DNA of 64,000 nucleotides from an uncultured bacterium (GTDB taxonomy: Bacteria; CAYUVA01). The stretch is from contig CAYUVA010000017.1 of NCBI GenBank assembly GCA_964448115.1, positions 1 to 64,000 of the forward strand, in the 5' to 3' direction. This document shows positions 4,006 to 22,911 of this stretch, piece by piece. The notes beneath the pieces were generated by a model that was not told the origin of the DNA, made no database searches, and saw only the letters and a program-made list of their open reading frames with translations. A program made the position numbers and the translations under genes. The first letter of the stretch is position 1, and every line of letters starts with the position of its first letter.

Positions 4006-4609
4006 ACCGATCTCGATAACTATATTTGCATCCGCAGTATTGTTGCCTGTAGAAGCCGTATTCCTTAGCTATCAGACAGCTTTTCTTGTAGCCGTCCTTT
4101 TTCTTGAAGTCAGCCTCCAGGAAGCTTATGCCATGTCTCTTCCCGACCTTTATCCCAACCTTGTTTATCAAGGAAGCATTCTTGTGCGGGCTAACGGTCA
4201 TGGTAGTGGTAATGAATCCTACCTGGTTTTCTTTTGCGAATCTGGCGGTGGCATCGAGACGAAAACGAAAGCATACCTCGCAGCGAGCGCCACCCTCTGG
4301 CTCATCCTCCAATCCCTTTATCGCTGAGTTGTATTCATCGATCCGATCATCTTCTAAGTACAATGCTATATTAAGACTCGTGAGTAGCCTTTTGACCTCG
4401 GCGAGGCGCAGCTCGAATTCCTTTTCAGGATAGATATTGGGATTGAAGAAGTACCCGATGACCTCGTAATCTCCTGTTAGCTCAGCGATCACGTGCCCGG
4501 CGCATGGCGCACAGCAGATGTGCAAAACCAACTGGGACTTCTTGCGCTCATCTAGGGAATCTTCCTCAGGTAACTCTAATGGCGAATATAATCTTTTTGC
4601 CATTGCCAT
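3983..4609 (-). CDS. queH: Epoxyqueuosine reductase QueH (DUF208)
   Basis: LHICCAPC, YFFNPNIYP, EPEGGARCEVCFRFRL, SPHKN, YRQQYCGCKYS. Confidence 0.92.
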   Translation of the reverse strand: MAMAKRLYSPLELPEEDSLDERKKSQLVLHICCAPCAGHVIAELTGDYEVIGYFFNPNIYPEKEFELRLAEVKRLLTSLNIALYLEDDRIDEYNSAIKGLEDEPEGGARCEVCFRFRLDATARFAKENQVGFITTTMTVSPHKNASLINKVGIKVGKRHGISFLEADFKKKDGYKKSCLIAKEYGFYRQQYCGCKYSYRDRFNKLMED

Positions 4610-13744: not shown

Positions 13745-14342
13745 GGGGGTGGACATAGCTTTCCAACTGTCATTACCGCGAAGGCGGGAATCCAGTTCCT
13801 ATCAACACTTACTTTGTGATCAAAATCAATTCTTCAGATCTGCCCAAGCCTTTTCTCAATTGACATTTATAGGTGGCTTCAATATTTTAAGATCTCGAGG
13901 TATTCTGATAGAAGGAAGAAATGCCGATGATGTAGCCGAGCGTTATCTGGGGGGATTTTACGCCAAGATGTACCTATCGCCATTGGATTTGCATTATGTA
14001 ATTTTCCCCTGTAACGGCGAAGTGGTAGGGAGTCTTCATTCGCCGGGAAGCGCTTTGCCGGTCATATTCTACAGATCTGCTGACATAAAGAATGAAAGAT
14101 TGACCACCGAGTACAAAACGCGCTTTGGCTTTAACATGCTGATCGCGATGATCGGCTCCTTCGCGGTCAATGCCATAGAGCGAAATTACCAGGTTGGCGA
14201 GAGCTACTCGCAGGGGGATATCCTGGGCAGGTTTCTGATCGGCTCCACGGTGCTGTTGATCTTTCCACCCGATTCAGCGGAGATGCTTATCAAGGTAGGC
14301 AAGAAGGTGAAGCTCTACCAGCCGCTAATCAAGCCGATATAA
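13734..14342 (+). pseudogene. psd: Phosphatidylserine decarboxylase C-terminal fragment (probably 5'-truncated)
   Basis: YLSPLDLH, KNER and GRFLIGSTV (self-cleavage GST motif) are present. The N-terminal SPxDG region is absent, and the first ~55 codons are non-homologous and include a REP-like palindrome. Confidence 0.6.
13768..13799 (+). repeat. TGTCA-tagged palindrome (dRS3/REP-like)
   Basis: TGTCATTACCGCGAAGGCGGGAATCCAGTTCC, 30/32 identical to 1998-2029. Confidence 0.8.
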
Positions 14343-14362
14343 GCGGCAGTTGAGGATATTCG

Positions 14363-17035
14363 ATGAATGAAAATGATATGAAGGATCAATCCGACTTCCC
14401 AAGAGATCCATTTCAAATATTGGATCCGGAAATAAGATGGGTGCCGTCTGCAAAAGAGCTGAAAGAAAAAGCTTATGATCACTTATTACCCCCTTTAGTG
14501 CATAAGATCCGTATTCAGGTTAAACAATGGCGGGATTTTAGGTATAGAGGCGCTTCGCCAACCTCGATTGCCCTGTTGAATTACTGGTTTAATACCGAAC
14601 ATAAGAACGGAGATGATTACTTTCAGTACTATTTCGCTCAGCGAGAAGCGGTTGAATCGGTAATATATTTATATGAGGTTGCAAAGGCTAGAGAAAAACA
14701 TGAACTAATCCAATTTGATTCATCAGAGCGAGTTAGCAAGGGTATGTTTCTAGGTAACTGGACTCGCTATGTTATAAAAATGGCGACAGGAACTGGAAAA
14801 ACTAAGGTAATTAGCCTTGTTTTGGCTTGGTCTTATTTCCATAAATTATATGAAGAGGATTCAGATCTTTCCAGAAATTTCCTTATAATTGCACCGAATA
14901 TTATAGTCTTAAACAGACTTAGAAAAGATTTCGATGATCCTACTATCTTCAGACAAGACCCAATTATCCCCGAAAATGGATATCAAGATAGAGATTGGAG
15001 AAATGATTTCCAGTTAACTTTGCATATACAGGATGAGCTAAAGCCTATAACAGGTGAAGGTAACCTCTTTCTTACCAATATTCATAGAGTTTATCTGAAT
15101 GAGCCATTTGCTACTATCGAAGAGGAATTTCTTGGCAAGAGACCTGCACCGGATGCTGATACCTCAAAGGGTGCTGACCTAGGCAAAGTTGTAAGAAGCG
15201 ATAAGATCAAAGACCTTGTCGTGTTCAACGACGAGGCACACCATATTCATGATGAACAATTGCAGTGGTTCCAAAGCATCGAGGATGTTAATAATCAGAT
15301 GAAACTGAAGACTGGGCATGGGATCGCACTTCAATTGGATACGACTGCGACACCAAAACATTCAGATGGATCTATCTTTGTGGAAACAATATGTGATTAC
15401 CCTCTCGTAGAGGCTATCAGACAGAATGTGGTGAAATCACCAGTATTGCCGGATGAGGTATCCCGAGCAAAAATAACTGAACAGACATCGGATAAGTTCG
15501 TCGAAAGATATAAGAATTTTATTGAACTAGGATATATTGAATGGGAGCAACAATATGAGGAACTTAAGAACCATAAAACACCCATCCTCTTTGTCATGAC
15601 AAATGTAACTAGCGAAGCTGATGAGACAAAAGAATATCTGGAAAGAATATATCCTAAGCTCAAAGGAGCTGTTCTAGTAATCCATACGAATAGAAGTGGC
15701 GATATTTCAGAAAGTGGATCAACCAAAAAGAAAAAAGAAGAACTGGAAAAACTGAGGGAAGCAGCAGATAACATAGACTCTGACCTCTCAAAGTACAAAG
15801 CAGTTGTATCTGTGATGATGCTCAGAGAAGGATGGGATGTTAAAAATGTAAGCACCATCGTAGGATTACGCCCCTATGGATCACCTGCAAGGATACTGCC
15901 GGAACAAACCCTAGGCAGGGGTTTGCGAAAGATGTTCGGCAGAGATGTAAAAGAAGAATTGGTGGTAGTTGGAACACCTGCTTTCATTGAATTCGTTGAA
16001 TCGATTAAAACCGAAGGGGTTCAGCTTGGCTACAGAAAAATGGGACCTAATGTCAAATCACAACAGCCTTTGATTATCGAAGTAGATTCCGATAATGCAA
16101 ATAAAGATATAGATAAACTTGATATTCAGATCCCAATTTTAACATCTCGAATATATAGAGAATATAAGAATCTTGAGGAAATTGATGTATATGCAATGAA
16201 AGTTGATCCTTTAACATTAAATGAATATACAGAAGAAGAACTTAAACAAATAATATTTAGAGATATCGACGATAATATCTCTCATACAACAGTTTTTTCC
16301 GATGCAAACATAGACTATAGGAATGTTATCGGTTTTTTCACTCAAAGCATAATGAAAGAAAACCGACTGGTAAGTGGATTTAATATCCTTTATCCGAAAG
16401 TGGAAGTATTTATTCGTATGAAACTATTCGGTAAAGAAGTTGACCTACAAGATCGACAGATAATTAGAAACCTTTCTGAAATAAATACAAGGGTTGCCAT
16501 TTTTACTGCTTTCAAAAATGCTATCAATGAGTTAACAATTAGAGATAAGGGTTCTGCTGAAGTTCGTAACTTTATTTCTTTGAAAAATACACGGCCAACT
16601 GTAGTTAATAATCAAAGATATCTAATACCTCAAAAAAGCATATTTAATAAAATAGTTGGAGATAGCGATTTTGAGCTTGAATTTGCTGCTTTCCTTGAAC
16701 AATGTAATGATATTATATCTTTTGCAAAAAACAATGAAAAAATTGTATTCAAAATAGAATACCAGGCTGATGATGGGAATATAAAATTATTTATACCTGA
16801 TTTCTTTGTTAAGGCAACCGAAAATGAACATTATATTATTGAGACAAAAGGAAGAGAAGATTTAGATGATATACGAAAAAGAAATCGCCTTATAACCTGG
16901 TGTAATGATGTGAACCATGTACAGGATAAAATTAAATATAATCCTCTTTATGTAAAACAAGAAATATGGGAAAAATACCGAGATAGCTTAAAGAACTTTA
17001 GAGATGTTATAGGGCTGGGAAAAATTAATGAATAA
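14363..17035 (+). CDS. res: Type III-like restriction enzyme Res subunit (SF2 helicase plus PD-(D/E)XK nuclease)
   Basis: YYFAQREAVE, MATGTGKT, DEAHH, TATP, LREGWDVKNV, EQTLGRGLR; C-terminal FIPDFFV..IIETKG; AT-rich. Confidence 0.88.
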   Translation: MNENDMKDQSDFPRDPFQILDPEIRWVPSAKELKEKAYDHLLPPLVHKIRIQVKQWRDFRYRGASPTSIALLNYWFNTEHKNGDDYFQYYFAQREAVESVIYLYEVAKAREKHELIQFDSSERVSKGMFLGNWTRYVIKMATGTGKTKVISLVLAWSYFHKLYEEDSDLSRNFLIIAPNIIVLNRLRKDFDDPTIFRQDPIIPENGYQDRDWRNDFQLTLHIQDELKPITGEGNLFLTNIHRVYLNEPFATIEEEFLGKRPAPDADTSKGADLGKVVRSDKIKDLVVFNDEAHHIHDEQLQWFQSIEDVNNQMKLKTGHGIALQLDTTATPKHSDGSIFVETICDYPLVEAIRQNVVKSPVLPDEVSRAKITEQTSDKFVERYKNFIELGYIEWEQQYEELKNHKTPILFVMTNVTSEADETKEYLERIYPKLKGAVLVIHTNRSGDISESGSTKKKKEELEKLREAADNIDSDLSKYKAVVSVMMLREGWDVKNVSTIVGLRPYGSPARILPEQTLGRGLRKMFGRDVKEELVVVGTPAFIEFVESIKTEGVQLGYRKMGPNVKSQQPLIIEVDSDNANKDIDKLDIQIPILTSRIYREYKNLEEIDVYAMKVDPLTLNEYTEEELKQIIFRDIDDNISHTTVFSDANIDYRNVIGFFTQSIMKENRLVSGFNILYPKVEVFIRMKLFGKEVDLQDRQIIRNLSEINTRVAIFTAFKNAINELTIRDKGSAEVRNFISLKNTRPTVVNNQRYLIPQKSIFNKIVGDSDFELEFAAFLEQCNDIISFAKNNEKIVFKIEYQADDGNIKLFIPDFFVKATENEHYIIETKGREDLDDIRKRNRLITWCNDVNHVQDKIKYNPLYVKQEIWEKYRDSLKNFRDVIGLGKINE

Positions 17036-17315
17036 AGCATATTTTGTATATATAATGACTAATAAGAATAATGCTGTTCTTTATACTGGAGTAACCAATA
17101 ATCTAAAACGAAGAATCTATGAACATAAAAATAAAATAATTCAGGGATTTACAAGCAGGTATAATATTGTGAAGCTCGTTTATTATGAAATGTATAATGA
17201 TATTTACATGGCAATTAACCGGGAAAAGCAGATTAAAGCAGGTCCAAGAAAGAAGAAAATTGATTTGATTAATGGCATGAATCCTGAGTGGAAGGATTTA
17301 TACGATGGTTTATAA
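17028..17315 (+). CDS. Small stand-alone GIY-YIG nuclease (YhbQ/UPF0213-like)
   Basis: FVYIMTN..VLYTGVTNNLKRRIYEHK, AINREKQIK, NPEWKDL; start overlaps the end of res. Confidence 0.9.
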   Translation: MNKAYFVYIMTNKNNAVLYTGVTNNLKRRIYEHKNKIIQGFTSRYNIVKLVYYEMYNDIYMAINREKQIKAGPRKKKIDLINGMNPEWKDLYDGL

Positions 17316-17331
17316 TGAGATTATGAGATAT

Positions 17332-17784
17332 GAGATTGCTTCGTCGCTACGCTCCTCGCAATGACAATGGCGTGAATGGTTGCTTCNNNNNNNNNNNNNN
17401 NNNNNNNNNNNNNNNNNNNNNNNNNNNNNNNNNNNNNNNNNNNNNNNNNNNNNNNNNNNNNNNNNNNNNNNNNNNNNNNNNNNNNNATCCCATTGTACTG
17501 TTATGGAGATTGCTTCGTCGCTACGCTCCTCGCAATGACAATGGCGTGAATGGTTGCTTCCCCCTTTCACTGTCATTGTGTCCCCCCACCTTGTCATTGT
17601 GTCCCCCCACCTTGTCATTGTGTCCCCCCACCTTGTCATTGCGAGCAAAGCGAAGCAATCCCATTGTACTGTTATGGAGATTGCTTCGTCGCTACGCTCC
17701 TCGCAATGACAAAGAAGGGAACCTCAATGACAAAGAATGGACTCGCAAAGACAACGAAAGGAACCGCGTTGGCAAAGAAGGCTT
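17332..17784. repeat. Array of TGTCA-tagged REP-like palindromes with 21-bp tandem flanks (contains assembly gap)
   Basis: Identical 35-mer GAGATTGCTTCGTCGCTACGCTCCTCGCAATGACA at 17332, 17506 and 17677 (171-bp period); inverted partner TGTCATTGCGAGCAAAGCGAAGCAATC at 17634; TGTCATTGTGTCCCCCCACCT x3 (17571-17633); degenerate 21-mers 17701-17784. Confidence 0.9.
17387..17486. other. Assembly gap (100 N) inside the repeat array
   Basis: Run of N flanked on both sides by copies of the 171-bp unit, so probably a collapsed tandem repeat. Confidence 0.95.
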
Positions 17785-17861
17785 GGGCATTGATGGACAT
17801 AATATCAAACAAATATGATATAATATTCGGTAACTACCACAAAAGAAAGGAACAATAAAAA

Positions 17862-20800
17862 ATGACAAAAATAAATCTTACCGATAAAGAAAAGGAAATC
17901 TTAATCAGCTACATCAAACAAGGTAGAGCAATACCCAAGAAATATATATACAAACTCTATGCCGACCAGGAGGATGTCTTCCTGTTCTGGAATGGTAGAA
18001 ATGAGAATGTAATAAACGCAGTCCTTCCATTCCACTCCATCGAACATATAGACGAACCCAGAGAGGATTCATCCGTCAATCCACTGCTCGACTCAATGAC
18101 CGGCAGGCAGATTAAAGGCTGGACAAACAAGCTGATCTGGGGCGACAACAAGCTGGTGCTATCATCGCTAGTCAACGGACCAATGCGCGAGGATATCGAA
18201 AGAGAAGGCGGACTCAAGCTAATCTATATAGATCCGCCGTTCGCTGTCGGAGCTGACTTCTCGCACAACATCAAAATAAACGGAGAGGATGTTACCAAGA
18301 AGCAATCGGTCATCGAGGAGATAGCCTACAGAGATACATGGGGCAGGGGGATATCTTCATACCTGACAATGATGTACGAGAGATTGAAGCTCATGCACCA
18401 ACTGCTCGCAGAGGATGGGAGTATTTATGTGCACATAGATTGGAGAATCAATATCTATATGAGGTTGATACTAGATGATATCTTTGGCAAATATAATTTC
18501 AACAGAGAGATTACATGGAATACAGGATGGCCATTAGGATTTAAAACCTCTACAGATAATTGGATAAAACAACATGATACAATCTTTTATTATAGGAGAA
18601 ATAATAATTATTATATTTTTAATAAGCAATATATTCCGTATGAGATAGATTACCAAAAACGAGCTAGGAAGGATCCTGATGGGAGATTATGGGTTGATCA
18701 AAGTTTGGGTTATATCTCTGATGAAAAATTAGAACAAATGAAAAAAGAAGGAAGAGTTTTCCGGACCAAGAGAGGTGGCTGGAGGAAAAAACAATATTTG
18801 GATGAGATGCCGGGATTAATGGTTGGTGATATATGGACAGATATTGATCCTATAAATTCACAAGCATCTGAGAACCTCTTTTTCCCCACCCAAAAGCCTG
18901 AAGCTCTTTTAGAGCGTATCATCAAGGCATCCTCTAATGAGGGTGATCTGGTAGCTGATTTTTTCTGTGTTGCTGCGGGGACGAGAGTGTTGGTGCAATC
19001 CCCCACCCCAGCCCTCCCCGTGAACGGGGAGGGAGCAGATTCCCCCCCGTTCACGGGGGGGATCAAGGGGGGGGGATATTCCCCCCCGTTCACGGGGGGG
19101 ATCAAGGGGGGGGGATATTCCCCCCCGTTCACGGGGGGGATCAAGGGGGGGGATATTGCCCCCCGTTCACGGGAGGGATCAAGGGGGGGGATATTTCCCC
19201 CCCGTTCACGGGAGGGATCAAGGGGGGGGATATTTCCCCCCCGTTCACGGGGGGGATTAAGGGGGGGGATACTCCCCCCCCCACATTCCAACGAAAACAT
19301 ATACCTCCTCAACATAGAACAAATCCAACCTGGCGACTATGTTTTTTCGCATGATGGTTTTGCCCATAAAGTTATCAGAACAATCTCAAGGCAATACAAA
19401 GGATTGATGATCGGCATAAAACATAATCTAACTGATTCCACGCTTTGGTTAACGGCAGATCATAAGGTTTTAGCAAAAATTCGCCCTCGTACTTTAGGCG
19501 GAAAGCGTGATTGGAGTGCTGGTCCAATTGAAAATCTGGATCGTAGAAAAAAGCTGAGGAATAAGGCAACTGAAACTGAGAGGCTTTTATGGAAAAGAAT
19601 ATGCAGCAGACAATTGGGTTATAAATTTCGAAGACAACATCCAATTGGACCGTATATTGCTGATTTTTATTGTCGAGATGCCCATTTGGTAGTCGAACTT
19701 GATGGAGATTCACATTTTACCCCTGAATCGAAAGTTTATGATAACGAGCGAGATTTGTACATGGAATCACTTGGCATAGAAGTGATACGGATAAATAATT
19801 CAGAGGTAAAACATAACATTGAGGGAGTACTTCAAGTGCTTTATTCTAAATGTGTTGAGAGATGTGAATCAAAAGAAGATGCCAAATGGGTCGAAGCACG
19901 CAATCTTAAGCCTGGTGATTTAGTTTTTTGGGGAATTGAGCAAGAGTCATTAGAAATCAAGTCGATTGAAAGGAAATACACTGAAGAATGTGTTTATGAT
20001 ATTGAAGTGAATGATTCGCACTCATTCATTACCGATGTTTGTACGGTTCATAATTGCGGTTCAGGGACTACAGCAGCAGTGGCAGAGAAGCTGGGTCGCA
20101 AGTGGATCGCTTGTGATCTGGGACGCTTTGCCATACATACGACACGAAAACGAATGATTCAAGTCCAGCGCGAACTGAAGGCGGAAGGTAAGAATTTCCG
20201 CGCCTTTGAGGTGCTGAATCTAGGTAAATATGAGCGTCAGTTTTTTATGGGGATACCCGCCGATATACCCAAGGATCAACAGGAACAACTTCTTGCGGAA
20301 AAAGAAGAAAAGTATATCAAACTCGTATTGGAGGGTTACTCTGCACAACCGATCAAAGGTTATCGATTATTGCATGGTAAAAAATCAAATCGAATGGTTC
20401 ATGTCGGTCCTCTAAGCGTCCCAGTAACTAAAACATTGGTTGAAGAAATCTTCAACGAATGCAAAGAAAAACTTGTAACTCAGGTCGATGTACTCGGATT
20501 CGAGTTCGAGATGGGATTAGTTCCATTCATACAAGATGAGCTACAAAAAGAAGGAGTTTCAGTCAGATTCAGGAGCATACCAAGGGAAGTTTTCGATAAA
20601 AGAGCAGTGGAAAAAGGACAAGTCAAATTTTACGATGTTGCTTATCTTGAAGTACAACCTCATATCATCGGTCGAAAAGTCAAAATTGAGCTAACTAATT
20701 TCGTAACTAATTATACGCAAGATGATCTGGAAGAGTTGGAGAAGAGTCTTAAAAAAGGCAGTTCTAAGGTAATAATTGAAGATGGAAAAATTATCAAATT

Positions 20801-21128
20801 GAGCAAGGATAAAAATGGAATTCTGCAAAGAGAACTTTTAACTGATAACTGGGTAGATTGGATTGACTATTGGGCGGTTGATTTCGATTATCAAAATAAA
20901 AAAGAGATTATCCGAATAGGTAAGAATGGAGCAGATAAAGAAATATGGACAGGTAATTATATATTTGAAAATGAATGGCAATCTTTCAGAACAAAAAAGA
21001 ATCCAAATATTGAACTTATAACTTCCTCACATCTTTATGACAAACCTGGGAATTATAAAATTCTTGTAAAAGTGGTGGATATCTTAGGCATTGATACCTC
21101 AAAGATAATTGAGATCAATCTTGTTTAG
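17862..21128 (+). CDS. mod: Type III-like Mod subunit, beta-class amino-methyltransferase, intein-containing
   Basis: NKLIWGDN, motif IV LIYIDPPF, PTQKPEALLERII, motif I DFF/CGSGTT split by an intein; predicted spliced product 725 aa. Confidence 0.9.
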   Translation: MTKINLTDKEKEILISYIKQGRAIPKKYIYKLYADQEDVFLFWNGRNENVINAVLPFHSIEHIDEPREDSSVNPLLDSMTGRQIKGWTNKLIWGDNKLVLSSLVNGPMREDIEREGGLKLIYIDPPFAVGADFSHNIKINGEDVTKKQSVIEEIAYRDTWGRGISSYLTMMYERLKLMHQLLAEDGSIYVHIDWRINIYMRLILDDIFGKYNFNREITWNTGWPLGFKTSTDNWIKQHDTIFYYRRNNNYYIFNKQYIPYEIDYQKRARKDPDGRLWVDQSLGYISDEKLEQMKKEGRVFRTKRGGWRKKQYLDEMPGLMVGDIWTDIDPINSQASENLFFPTQKPEALLERIIKASSNEGDLVADFFCVAAGTRVLVQSPTPALPVNGEGADSPPFTGGIKGGGYSPPFTGGIKGGGYSPPFTGGIKGGDIAPRSREGSRGGIFPPRSREGSRGGIFPPRSRGGLRGGILPPPHSNENIYLLNIEQIQPGDYVFSHDGFAHKVIRTISRQYKGLMIGIKHNLTDSTLWLTADHKVLAKIRPRTLGGKRDWSAGPIENLDRRKKLRNKATETERLLWKRICSRQLGYKFRRQHPIGPYIADFYCRDAHLVVELDGDSHFTPESKVYDNERDLYMESLGIEVIRINNSEVKHNIEGVLQVLYSKCVERCESKEDAKWVEARNLKPGDLVFWGIEQESLEIKSIERKYTEECVYDIEVNDSHSFITDVCTVHNCGSGTTAAVAEKLGRKWIACDLGRFAIHTTRKRMIQVQRELKAEGKNFRAFEVLNLGKYERQFFMGIPADIPKDQQEQLLAEKEEKYIKLVLEGYSAQPIKGYRLLHGKKSNRMVHVGPLSVPVTKTLVEEIFNECKEKLVTQVDVLGFEFEMGLVPFIQDELQKEGVSVRFRSIPREVFDKRAVEKGQVKFYDVAYLEVQPHIIGRKVKIELTNFVTNYTQDDLEELEKSLKKGSSKVIIEDGKIIKLSKDKNGILQRELLTDNWVDWIDYWAVDFDYQNKKEIIRIGKNGADKEIWTGNYIFENEWQSFRTKKNPNIELITSSHLYDKPGNYKILVKVVDILGIDTSKIIEINLV
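18999..19282 (+). repeat. In-frame poly-C/poly-G hairpin array inside the intein (one inverted unit plus six ~39-bp tandem units)
   Basis: Unit TCCCCCCCG-TTCA-CGGGGGGG-ATCAA-G8/9-ATAT starting at 19041, 19080, 19119, 19157 and onward; preceded by the inverted form CCCTCCCCG-TGAA-CGGGGAGGG. Confidence 0.92.
19542..19850 (+). other. DUF559 (Vsr-like) endonuclease domain within the intein
   Basis: RRKKLRNKATETERLLWKRI..LGYKFRRQHPIGPYIADFYC..LVVELDGDSH..YDNERDLYMESLGIEVIRINNSEV..NIEGVL. Confidence 0.9.
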
Positions 21129-21210
21129 ATAATCCTATAAAAGATATGATTCGACGGAGACTCAACATCTATTAGATGTCTCCTTATGGAAAACGGGTAT
21201 TTTTCAAGTC

Positions 21211-22911
21211 ATGACTATGAGCAAAGTTATTAAGATCACCGATCTTGGATTTAGGTATCGAAACACGACCGAGTTTGCTATAGATAATATCTCCCTTGAA
21301 GTTGAGCCTGGAGAGCTGGTGGTTATCATGGGGCATGGTGGTGCAGGTAAATCTTCCTTCTGTTTCTGTCTAAATAGGATTATCCCTTGTATCTTACAAG
21401 GAGAGCTAAAAGGAAGCATTATTCTTCAAGGCGAGTCTATAGAAAAAAGTCAACCACATGACCTGACCGGACAGGTAGGCATCGTATTCCAGGACTTCGA
21501 GGTTCAGCTTATATCGGTCAGCGTTGCCCAAGAGGTCGCATTCCCCTTGGAGAATCTCGGCATAGAGCGTTCCGAGATGCTCAAACGGATCAAGGAATCA
21601 CTGGAAAAAGTCGATCTGGTCGGATATGATGACAGGACACCGACCACCCTATCCGGGGGACAGAAGCAGAGACTGGCCATCGCCTCTGTGCTCGCCACCC
21701 ATCCGCGGCTCCTTATCCTCGATGAGCCGACCACAGATCTCGATCCGCTCGGTAAAAGCCATATCTTCGAGATCGCCTCCAGGCTGAAGGGACATCAAAC
21801 AATAATCATCGTAGAACATGAGACCGAGAAGATCATCGGTGCTGATCGACTGATCATCTTTCATCAGGGCAAGCTTCACGCACAAGGGAAGCCTCGACGA
21901 TTGCTGGCTGATACCAGGATGCTCGTGGATTGCGGCATAAAGCCGCTTGAGGTCATAGAGATAGCAGAACTTCTTGGATTAGATGCCTCACCCATCACGG
22001 TCGATGAGTGCTGCCGGAAGCTTAAAGCGGGCAATGTCTCGCTTGATATGGAGAAATTCAAAGAGCTGAGGGCTAAAGAGCGCCAGGTTATAGACAACTA
22101 CGGCGAAGAGGTGATCAACATCTCGAATTTGAGTTACAGATACCAGGACACATCGCAACCTGCCTTAAATGGCATTGATTTGACAGTTCGCCGGGGCGAG
22201 TTCATCGCCATTTTAGGACAGAATGGCAGCGGCAAGACTACGCTAGCAAAGTTGATGAACGGGCTTTTGCGACCTGAGGCTGACAGGGTTATGGTCATGG
22301 GAGAAGATGCATCAACAGCAGGTCTTCGTCGTCTGTGTCAGCATGTCGGGTATGTGTTCCAGAACCCTGACCACCAACTGTTTGCCCGCACCGTCTGGGA
22401 GGAGGTCTCCTTTGCTCCACGCATGTTCGGGCAGGACGAAAAGCAGATCGAGGAGTCGGTCAAGCTCGCCCTTGTTAGCGTAAAGATGCTGGAATACAAG
22501 GACAAAGATCCTCTATCGCTTCCCAAGGGGATGCGCCAACGAGTGGCAGTTGCATCAATACTAGCATCGCAGCCTGAGATAATAATTCTCGATGAACCGA
22601 CCACCGGCTTGGACTACAATCAACTCAACTCAATGATGGAGCTTATTAGCAGTCAAAACCACTGCGGCAGAACCATCATTATGATCACGCATAGCGTATG
22701 GGTTGCAGCCAGGTGGGCACATCGGATCTTGATAATGAATCAGGGGCGAATTATCGCTGACGGCAGCCCCAGAGATATACTTGCTGATTTTGAGCTGCTA
22801 AAAGAGACAAGCTTGGAGGCTCCGGACTCTGTATTAGTATCGCAAGGATTATTCAAAGAGACGCTGTTATCGCCTGTCGAATTCAAGATGGTCTGTCGTG
22901 TTGAGAGCTGA
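21211..22911 (+). CDS. ecfA: Energy-coupling-factor transporter ATPase (two fused ABC domains)
   Basis: Two Walker A motifs (GHGGAGKS, GQNGSGKTT), LSGGQKQR, DEPTT twice, VFQNPDHQLF. Confidence 0.88.
   Translation: MTMSKVIKITDLGFRYRNTTEFAIDNISLEVEPGELVVIMGHGGAGKSSFCFCLNRIIPCILQGELKGSIILQGESIEKSQPHDLTGQVGIVFQDFEVQLISVSVAQEVAFPLENLGIERSEMLKRIKESLEKVDLVGYDDRTPTTLSGGQKQRLAIASVLATHPRLLILDEPTTDLDPLGKSHIFEIASRLKGHQTIIIVEHETEKIIGADRLIIFHQGKLHAQGKPRRLLADTRMLVDCGIKPLEVIEIAELLGLDASPITVDECCRKLKAGNVSLDMEKFKELRAKERQVIDNYGEEVINISNLSYRYQDTSQPALNGIDLTVRRGEFIAILGQNGSGKTTLAKLMNGLLRPEADRVMVMGEDASTAGLRRLCQHVGYVFQNPDHQLFARTVWEEVSFAPRMFGQDEKQIEESVKLALVSVKMLEYKDKDPLSLPKGMRQRVAVASILASQPEIIILDEPTTGLDYNQLNSMMELISSQNHCGRTIIMITHSVWVAARWAHRILIMNQGRIIADGSPRDILADFELLKETSLEAPDSVLVSQGLFKETLLSPVEFKMVCRVES

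Follow-up and report, generated by a model that had tools for sequence, protein, structure and literature searches.

A translated G/C hairpin array in a DUF559 intein of a Type III-like mod gene, probably an ancestral repeat module of the intein lineage

We analyzed a 64,000-nt stretch of DNA (the window) from an uncultured bacterium (contig CAYUVA010000017.1 of assembly GCA_964448115.1; its genome is called G000 below). The element under study is a tandem array of G/C-rich hairpin repeats that is read in frame inside an intein, which itself interrupts a gene resembling the modification gene (mod) of Type III restriction-modification (R-M) systems. We interpret the array as an ancestral, DNA-level hairpin or triplex module of a lineage of inteins that carry a DUF559 nuclease domain, and we give this reading a probability of roughly 0.6. 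Here, the module would be amplified six-fold with pure homopolymer stems, would be tolerated because its disordered loop is removed together with the intein, and would be hypermutable as a by-product. The original prediction had proposed a phase-variation switch for the R-M system, with the intein as a safe harbor. Its ingredients stand, namely slip-prone tracts in frame and inactivating slips, and frame-broken relatives exist, but a switch does not account well for why the array is there, since the repeats are universal in the lineage, including in relatives with interrupted runs, and their type accompanies DUF559.

The evidence that carries this reading is the presence of repeats at the same site in related inteins. 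With residues 340–760 of the protein as query, we found many DUF559-intein methylases with 41–54% identity, whose record labels name Chloroflexi, cyanobacteria, Armatimonadetes, Nitrospira, Chloracidobacterium, and Roseiflexus. When the best 83 were aligned, a variable, repeat-rich, Pro/Gly-rich stretch lay at the array site in every sequence covering it. Two anchor patterns caught 63 of the 83 proteins, in which the insert was 29–152 aa long (median 67) and never shorter, and 37 of these 63 inserts contained a repeated 6-mer. The 90% identity cluster of the window's own Mod protein held one member on one contig, and a degenerate DNA pattern for DFFCVAAGTRV matched no stretch in metagenome contigs.

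The same pattern was found in DNA. All 17 homologous loci with both splice junctions (L030–L032, L110–L122, and L125) had G/C hairpin repeats, 102–699 nt in length, between splicing block A and the strand with the pattern xPIExLxPGD. The minimal form, in L110, consists of one inverted and one forward unit; the first ~37 nt of its repeat are almost identical to the inverted-unit stretch of the window, and the two inteins are 56% identical in protein sequence. Stems vary among loci with complementarity kept (CCCTCCCCG/CGGGGAGGG, TCCCCCCG/CGGGGGGA, CCCCCTCTCCA/TGGAGAGGGGG, and CCCCTTCCCCAA/TTGGGGAAGGGG), and most of the hairpins listed for related loci have a second G-rich block after them or, in mirrored units, a C-rich block before them. 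Perfect hairpins occurred at 25.6/kb in the variable region, a figure inflated by register variants in homopolymer stems, compared with 2.3/kb in the flanks, and at least one was present in 18 of 18 loci. In low-GC hosts, G+C content at third codon positions (GC3) was higher in the repeat region than in the rest of the intein (0.70 versus 0.32 in this window, 0.68 versus 0.27 in L115, and 0.43 versus 0.30 in L032). Because stems covary, hairpins are dense, and GC3 is raised, constraint appears to act on the nucleic acid and not on the peptide only. Separately, we note two decayed copies of the intein, L034 and L035, which have undergone frame changes and lost large internal parts yet retain block A and the hairpins.

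Within the window, Tandem Repeats Finder placed the array at 19039–19280, with a period of 39, 6.3 copies, and 95% matches (score 413). The units start at 19042, 19081, 19120, 19158, 19197, and 19236, with lengths of 39, 39, 38, 39, 39, and 38 nt, and each single unit is a triplex-type motif of C-stem, loop, G-stem, loop, and G-stem. The inverted hairpin CCTCCCCGTGAACGGGGAGG is located at 19013–19032, and the arms at 19000–19032 and 19042–19074 (33 nt) are 76% complementary. A 20-nt core, searched with at most three mismatches, occurred 12 times in the window, on both strands and in seven places, all within 19013–19255 (0.00 in 100 shuffles). Similarly, 26 of the 27 G7/C7 matches in the 64 kb fell in 19042–19282 (shuffles, 8.0 ± 3.6). 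We counted 16 homopolymer runs of 7–9 nt in the array: five C7, four G7, four G8, two G9, and one C9. Folded as single-stranded DNA, the array region reached −104.7 kcal/mol, compared with −78.2 ± 4.2 for shuffles (z = −6.35), a figure that covers no triplex because the folding tool models hairpins only. G+C content is ~70% in the array, 32–44% in the R-M region (window 14000–22000), and 48% in the genome, and the low value of the R-M region fits a horizontally acquired island. Rfam gave no family at gathering score across 16800–21300, with 27 sub-threshold G/C-hairpin matches. A scan of 17300–19800 gave 0 terminator-like sites (shuffles, 2.5 ± 1.5) and promoter-like sites not above chance.

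Much of the anatomy described in the original prediction was borne out. Six units of ~39 bp and one inverted unit do lie between block A and the next Hint motif, the runs of 7–9 nt do number more than a dozen, and a change from G9 to G8 in unit 3 does shift the peptide from SPPFTGGIKGGGY to PRSREGSRGGIF with no stop. The further claim that the unit has no stop in any forward frame is true of units 1–5; across the whole array, one frame contains two stops, a TGA in the inverted unit and a TAA in unit 6 (ATTAAG).

The array lies, as had been proposed, inside a real intein (Table 1). The intein begins with Cys (CVAAGTRV) and ends with VHN followed by Cys, and the residues expected for splicing (C1, TADH with H166, H362–N363, and the +1 Cys) are invariant or nearly so across 36 aligned sequences. 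Intein-less orthologs (G021:C13 and G011:C12) align contiguously up to residue 369 and from residue 732. Among related genome loci, 74 out of 80 had GDxVxDxxC without the intein C-junction motif (HN followed by CGSG), and we read these from their sequences as uninterrupted mod. Foldseek matched the Hint fold to RadA, RecA, and gp41-1 inteins and to a bacterial intein-like (BIL) domain, with E values of 1e-5 to 5e-4 (including 4e2u, 2lwy, and 3ifj). The nuclease domain (residues ~560–663) matched 3hrl (TMt 0.76) and the EDxHD homing endonuclease I-Bth0305I (3r3p, TMt 0.75); in the same 36-sequence alignment, E244, H250, and D259 do not vary, and D246 hardly varies. No other DUF559 match was present in G000.

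The array encodes residues ~380–474 of the 1088-aa open reading frame (ORF) 17862–21128, in a loop that follows the first beta-strand of block A and precedes the next strand of the intein. AlphaFold pLDDT was 97 for intein residues 1–10, below 50 for residues ~12–110, and above 90 for most of the remainder, so the array loop is predicted to be disordered. The use of a DUF559/EDxHD nuclease as the homing endonuclease of an intein resembles the I-Bth0305I type (PMC3239194), and inteins are known to invade N6/N4 DNA methylase genes (PMC9403480 and PMC9957025). The window's intein differs in having a hairpin array; the portion of PMC9957025 that we consulted mentions neither hairpin nor palindrom.

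The host gene can be assigned to Type III Mod, since it has an N6/N4 methylase core like that of EcoP15I Mod and an adjoining ResIII helicase-nuclease gene. With the Mod family profile, E values were 1.1e-30 for EcoP15I Mod (4zcf) and 8.6e-38 for Mod 6k0w. Type III systems usually have mod first and then res; at this locus, res comes first and then mod.

Table 1. Coordinates in the window of the R-M genes, the intein, and the repeat units.
Feature	Position	Strand	Details
res-like gene	14363–17035	+	890 aa; ResIII helicase PF04851, E 5.6e-16; weak endonuclease-domain match PF19778, E 2.2e-4, below cut-off
Type III-like mod, intein-containing precursor	17862–21128	+	1088 aa; PF01555, E 2.9e-38, split around the intein
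Intein	18966–20054	+	residues 369–731, 363 aa; splits SAM-binding motif I between DFF and CGSGTT
Inverted unit	19000–19032	+	C-run (CCCCCACCCC), AG, hairpin CCCTCCCCGT-GA-ACGGGGAGGG; mirrors the forward units
Six tandem units	19039–19282	+	C7-GTTCAC-G7-ATCAA-G8/9-ATAT(T) each; a C9 run closes the array
DUF559 (Vsr-fold, EDxHD-type) nuclease domain	19539–19850	+	nested in the intein; PF04480, E 4.9e-30
+1 Cys and remainder of methylase motif I (CGSGTT)	20055–20072	+	start of C-extein; columns nearly invariant in alignment

The stretch between the two R-M genes (window 17028–17860) forms a second patch of nuclease plus repeats beside the same system. It contains a small GIY-YIG ORF (17028–17312; PF01541, E 2.6e-16), followed 3' by copies of a ~50-nt repeat (GAGATTGCTTCGTCGCTACGCTCCTCGCAATGACAA...) and an N gap at 17388–17486. 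Two 21-nt tandem arrays, at 17571–17641 (TGTCATTG...) and 17702–17781 (...CAATGACA), have mutually inverted cores.

By sequence layout, the array unit fits the BoxC/PIT/triplex motif (TM) pattern, with triplex formation itself putative. Published searches for such "intrastrand triplex" sequences specified stems of 6–15 nt, loops of 1–6 nt, and the order C-G-G (PMC4666352), with a G/C-rich consensus of CCCTCNCCC-N3-6-GGGNGAGGG-N3-GGGNGAGGG (Holder et al. 2015, PMC4666352). The unit C7/GTTCAC/G7/ATCAA/G8-9 falls within these stem and loop ranges, and its three blocks have the same order. Like the BoxC/PIT/TM family (PMC4666352), it combines a C-rich stem, a loop, a G-rich stem, a short loop, and then another G-rich stem, and it shares with that family many copies per genome, inverted pairs, loops more variable than stems, and rearrangement between close strains. 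The consulted part of the same source describes inverted pairs and triplex-motif loci that are more rearranged between close E. coli strains, and gives no known function and no link to mobile elements (PMC4666352). There are also differences. TM(ECO), according to that part, is always intergenic in E. coli and unlinked to mobile elements (PMC4666352), whereas the array is translated, tandem, and inside an intein; both the array and one other copy in G000, on contig C14, lie inside reading frames. The array also keeps a single, fixed position across an intein lineage and goes together with genes for DUF559 nucleases, and its stems are homopolymers of 7–8 nt, compared with CCCTCNCCC in TM(ECO).

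Copies of the unit are over-represented and dispersed in G000, as the triplex pattern would have it. The core was found 16 times in forward and 12 times in reverse orientation at up to two mismatches (control, 0), and at up to three mismatches it formed 12 clusters on 11 contigs, often in tandem. About 10 loci besides the intein array carry the same unit, and most look non-coding. Copies of the array family abut N runs at C46:20440-20970, C66:3870-4200, C1:71700-72130, and C33:30020-30075, and among these are a variant with the loop ATTCAT and a composite unit of 62 nt; because the repeats break the assembly, the copy numbers it gives for these four arrays are provisional. Where array units read ATCAA, the dispersed copies read ATTAA, so that one frame acquires a TAA. 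The strict hairpin pattern was scarce in five further genomes with such inteins (G041–G045), occurring in only 0–2 places each; the three places in G041 and G042 together lie at the intein locus, and G044 has a single place. Because of these low counts, the genome-wide spread appears special to this organism and no general property of intein hosts.

The C14 copy (C14:30418-30450, minus strand; L190) is the second translated one in G000. A single unit is read in frame, with the peptide IPPLNPPRERKGVP, within a 1003-codon ORF that has repeated modules, Ig-like and C-terminal; the unit falls in a linker joining such modules, and the ORF gave only a weak Big_7 match. Rickettsia palindromic elements and the G+C clusters of yeast mitochondria are small palindromic selfish repeats, and in-frame inserts of such elements leave protein genes unbroken. 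The array resembles the Rickettsia elements as an in-frame palindromic repeat, with the C14 ORF as a second in-frame case. It has no sequence relationship to them, however, and its unit is 39 nt rather than 100–150 nt, occurs in tandem, lies within an intein, and goes with a family of nucleases.

Together, these observations suggest the following history. An inverted pair of triplex-type repeats would be an ancestral, fixed part of the DUF559-intein lineage in Type III-like Mod genes, always in the loop just after splicing block A. The array would be maintained as DNA, would appear in the precursor as a disordered loop rich in Pro and Gly, and would be removed from the protein with the intein. 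Because the loop leaves with the intein, the length of the array may be free to drift; comparison shows the drift, and we infer the splicing. Unit variants and close relatives point to evolution by unit duplication and slipped-strand mispairing.

Comparison of close relatives illustrates how the repeats change. L115 and L116, which come from related assemblies, are 96–98% identical over 1.4–1.6 kb of flank but differ inside the repeat region by −1, +102, and −21 nt, which puts L116 out of frame. L031 is likewise out of frame, within its two hairpins, so the frame is broken exactly at the repeats in 2 out of 17 loci (L031 and L116). Over the following ~0.8 kb of intein, the frame is kept in all 17. 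The 15 in-frame loci span repeat lengths of 102–699 nt, which, with the predicted disorder of the loop (pLDDT below 50), agrees with the earlier proposal that the intein tolerates in-frame expansions. Variants of length and frame of the kind the original prediction would look for in related metagenome-assembled genomes (MAGs) exist at the repeats, but so do hairpins at the same site in all 17 loci, which is less in keeping with a switch as the reason for the array.

Homopolymer tracts slip frequently, and the pure C7 and G7–G9 stems of this array would be expected to undergo frequent single-base slips. After a net −1 change in the array, translation would end 10 codons on, at 19315, and after a net +1 change it would end 22 codons on, at 19352, so the inactivation of mod by a net slip, as proposed earlier, is what the reading frame predicts. 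Type III Res needs Mod, and a system without Mod does not restrict; restriction would for this reason be lost along with Mod. Given 16 runs of 7–9 nt, the early stops, and this dependence on Mod, stochastic ON/OFF behavior of the R-M system is a fair prediction. We interpret such switching as an expected by-product that the host possibly exploits, and not as the reason for the repeats, since the repeats are universal in the lineage, the runs of many relatives are interrupted, and the repeat type goes with DUF559 generally.

Several points weigh against our reading of the array as an ancestral intein module. Splicing of a precursor with a loop of ~95 aa is a prediction, and hypermutability in this population is predicted from its sequence. 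Because L031 and L116 come from metagenome assemblies, their broken frames could reflect errors of assembly or decay into pseudogenes. L124, which lacks the N junction and is outside the set of 17, has a frame break within its DUF559 part, away from the repeats. The insert lengths cover 63 of the 83 aligned proteins, as 8 of the others lacked the N-terminal anchor and 12 escaped the second pattern, and the inflated hairpin density has been noted above. Finally, universal retention could mean that the repeats serve the intein or the nuclease.

This last point leads to an alternative that is compatible with our reading, and that we regard as possible but tentative: the repeats could be putative sites that DUF559 nucleases bind or cut and copy, much as repetitive extragenic palindromes (REPs) are handled by RAYT transposases. 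The intein would keep the repeats for its own nuclease, and the solitary copies in G000 would be non-autonomous offspring. To ask about DUF559 and hairpins in general, we considered 64 metagenome loci (L126–L189) that match only the DUF559 part and lie in unrelated contexts. A perfect G/C-rich hairpin (stem of at least 7) was present within 300 nt of the DUF559 domain in 54 of them. These hairpins are of the CCCTCTCCC/CCTCCCCC type, with the same stem types; in many cases the domain has one on either flank, their loops being mirror images, and their density was 3.04/kb near DUF559 (120 in 39,425 nt) compared with 0.65/kb elsewhere (108 in 166,220 nt). Across 40 genomes from 40 families, counts of CCTCCCC-N2-8-GGGGAGG tracked DUF559 counts (Spearman 0.59, p 6e-5), and a backwards control pattern gave 0.03. 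A 2×2 table of hairpin-rich versus DUF559 genomes (8/2/3/27; Fisher p 8e-5) pointed the same way, but its thresholds were set after the counts had been seen, and five genomes were discordant: G013 and G035 are hairpin-rich without strong DUF559, and G012, G016, and G022 show the reverse.

The intein lineage itself offers evidence on both sides of this alternative. In its favor, G000 has a single DUF559 domain, that of the intein, together with the ~10 other loci of the unit. In L123, a second hairpin array (~850–1030), made up of PHPTSPVDGVSY repeats followed by SLPVDGEGWGG, occupies a loop within the C-terminal half of the Hint domain, so that repeats lie on both sides of its DUF559 domain. 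L030, from a Nitrospira MAG, has a second module copy of 101 nt (96% identical) at 4268–4430; this copy lies 1.4 kb downstream, past the conserved GPFTVE motif of the C-extein, and the L030 mod frame seems to shift between the intein and this copy. In both loci, hairpin modules have thus also multiplied locally. However, the support is purely correlative, the strict pattern is scarce in the five other intein-bearing genomes, and in the window 255 nt that include Hint strands separate the array from the DUF559 domain, which has no array on its 3' side.

The comparison with REP/REPIN-RAYT systems is one of likeness and difference. As with the array, their palindromes are short and G/C-rich, inverted doublets occur, copies are dispersed, and the repeats flank an enzyme gene present once (PMC3116915 and PMC3337134). 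In contrast to what the consulted parts of these sources describe, G000 has no Y1 transposase match, the array-family copies inspected have no GTAG/CGTC head, and the candidate enzyme is a PD-(D/E)xK-type DUF559 nuclease. We considered a RAYT/IS200 transposase as the mobilizer and rejected it, as Y1 (PF01797) gave 0 matches in G000, which is 94.45% complete, and the control was positive in 6 of 14 genomes. In its boldest and still doubtful form, the nuclease alternative would make DUF559 and BoxC/PIT hairpins a widespread, undescribed two-part mobile system, the nuclease counterpart of RAYT/REP, with the hairpins as candidate cis sites. The only nuclease copy of G000, in the intein, would have seeded the ~10 solitary loci, of which one is read in frame inside a different gene, and the array would double as a hypermutable fuse for the R-M system. 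The literature searched, outside subscription journals and supplements, describes neither hairpin or triplex repeats inside inteins nor hairpin repeats beside DUF559.

A dedicated phase-variation switch is unlikely, in our judgment, to be why the array is kept. Under this explanation, the tracts would be retained because ON/OFF states of mod, of Type III restriction, and of a methylation-dependent regulon benefit the host, with the intein as a harbor that hides in-frame changes. Phase-variable Type III mod genes (phasevarions) are well known, and the array resembles them in being a simple-sequence tract within a Type III-like mod frame in which slips of ±1 would switch the gene off. The 16 runs, the early stops after a net slip, and the 2 of 17 relatives out of frame exactly at the repeats are all consistent with a switch. 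So is the observation that five of the six units are stop-free in three forward frames where the dispersed copies read ATTAA instead of ATCAA, although this change is one substitution spread by unit duplication and counts as one event. The known switches, however, consist of one tract in the extein, whereas the window has 16, which belong to a structured repeat within an intein. Moreover, some related inteins carry interrupted G-runs at the array site (GGGGAGGG and GGGAGAGG), which would slip poorly because the runs are broken, so that repeats are universal in the lineage even where slippage is poor, and switching in the window is a prediction. The same hairpin type also flanks DUF559 genes unrelated to R-M.

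Contigs from three public sequencing runs of a single sample (X1–X3), of which X1 is probably from the source sample of this assembly, bear on both the switch and the integrity of the array. Contigs of X1 tie the array edges to unique flanks with 0 differences, over 18600–19068 and 19239–19700. No contig from the three runs crosses the array; the number of units and the precise lengths of the runs are therefore those of the assembly. Omissions of 1 nt at 19106 and 19249 come from contigs with loose ends that correspond to other copies in the genome or to unknown flanks, and they are uninformative about the array locus for that reason; the 20-nt loose-end flank of one such contig had no match in the genome. 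An artifact of short-read repeat assembly, which the original prediction had named as its own possible undoing, or a mod pseudogene that is open by chance is very improbable: although other arrays of the family are broken by N gaps and a random length is in frame one-third of the time, independent contigs join both edges to unique flanks, the architecture recurs in 17 independent assemblies, the catalytic and splicing residues are all intact, and the rest of the model folds confidently.

Inteins are usually treated as protein-level parasites whose DNA is coding information only. Throughout the lineage studied here, a structured and rapidly changing DNA repeat is retained at a single, fixed loop position, and the repeat is of a type (BoxC/PIT/triplex) for which the consulted part of Holder et al. 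(2015, PMC4666352) gave no function and no mobile-element link. The link between DUF559 and hairpins makes two puzzles testable, the role of DUF559 and the origin of triplex repeats; a two-part system, if true, would give DUF559 a function and BoxC/triplex repeats an origin. For the host, 16 slippery tracts in its only mod copy predict a very unstable Type III restriction system, which would matter for phage defense and gene flow in a poorly sampled bacterium.

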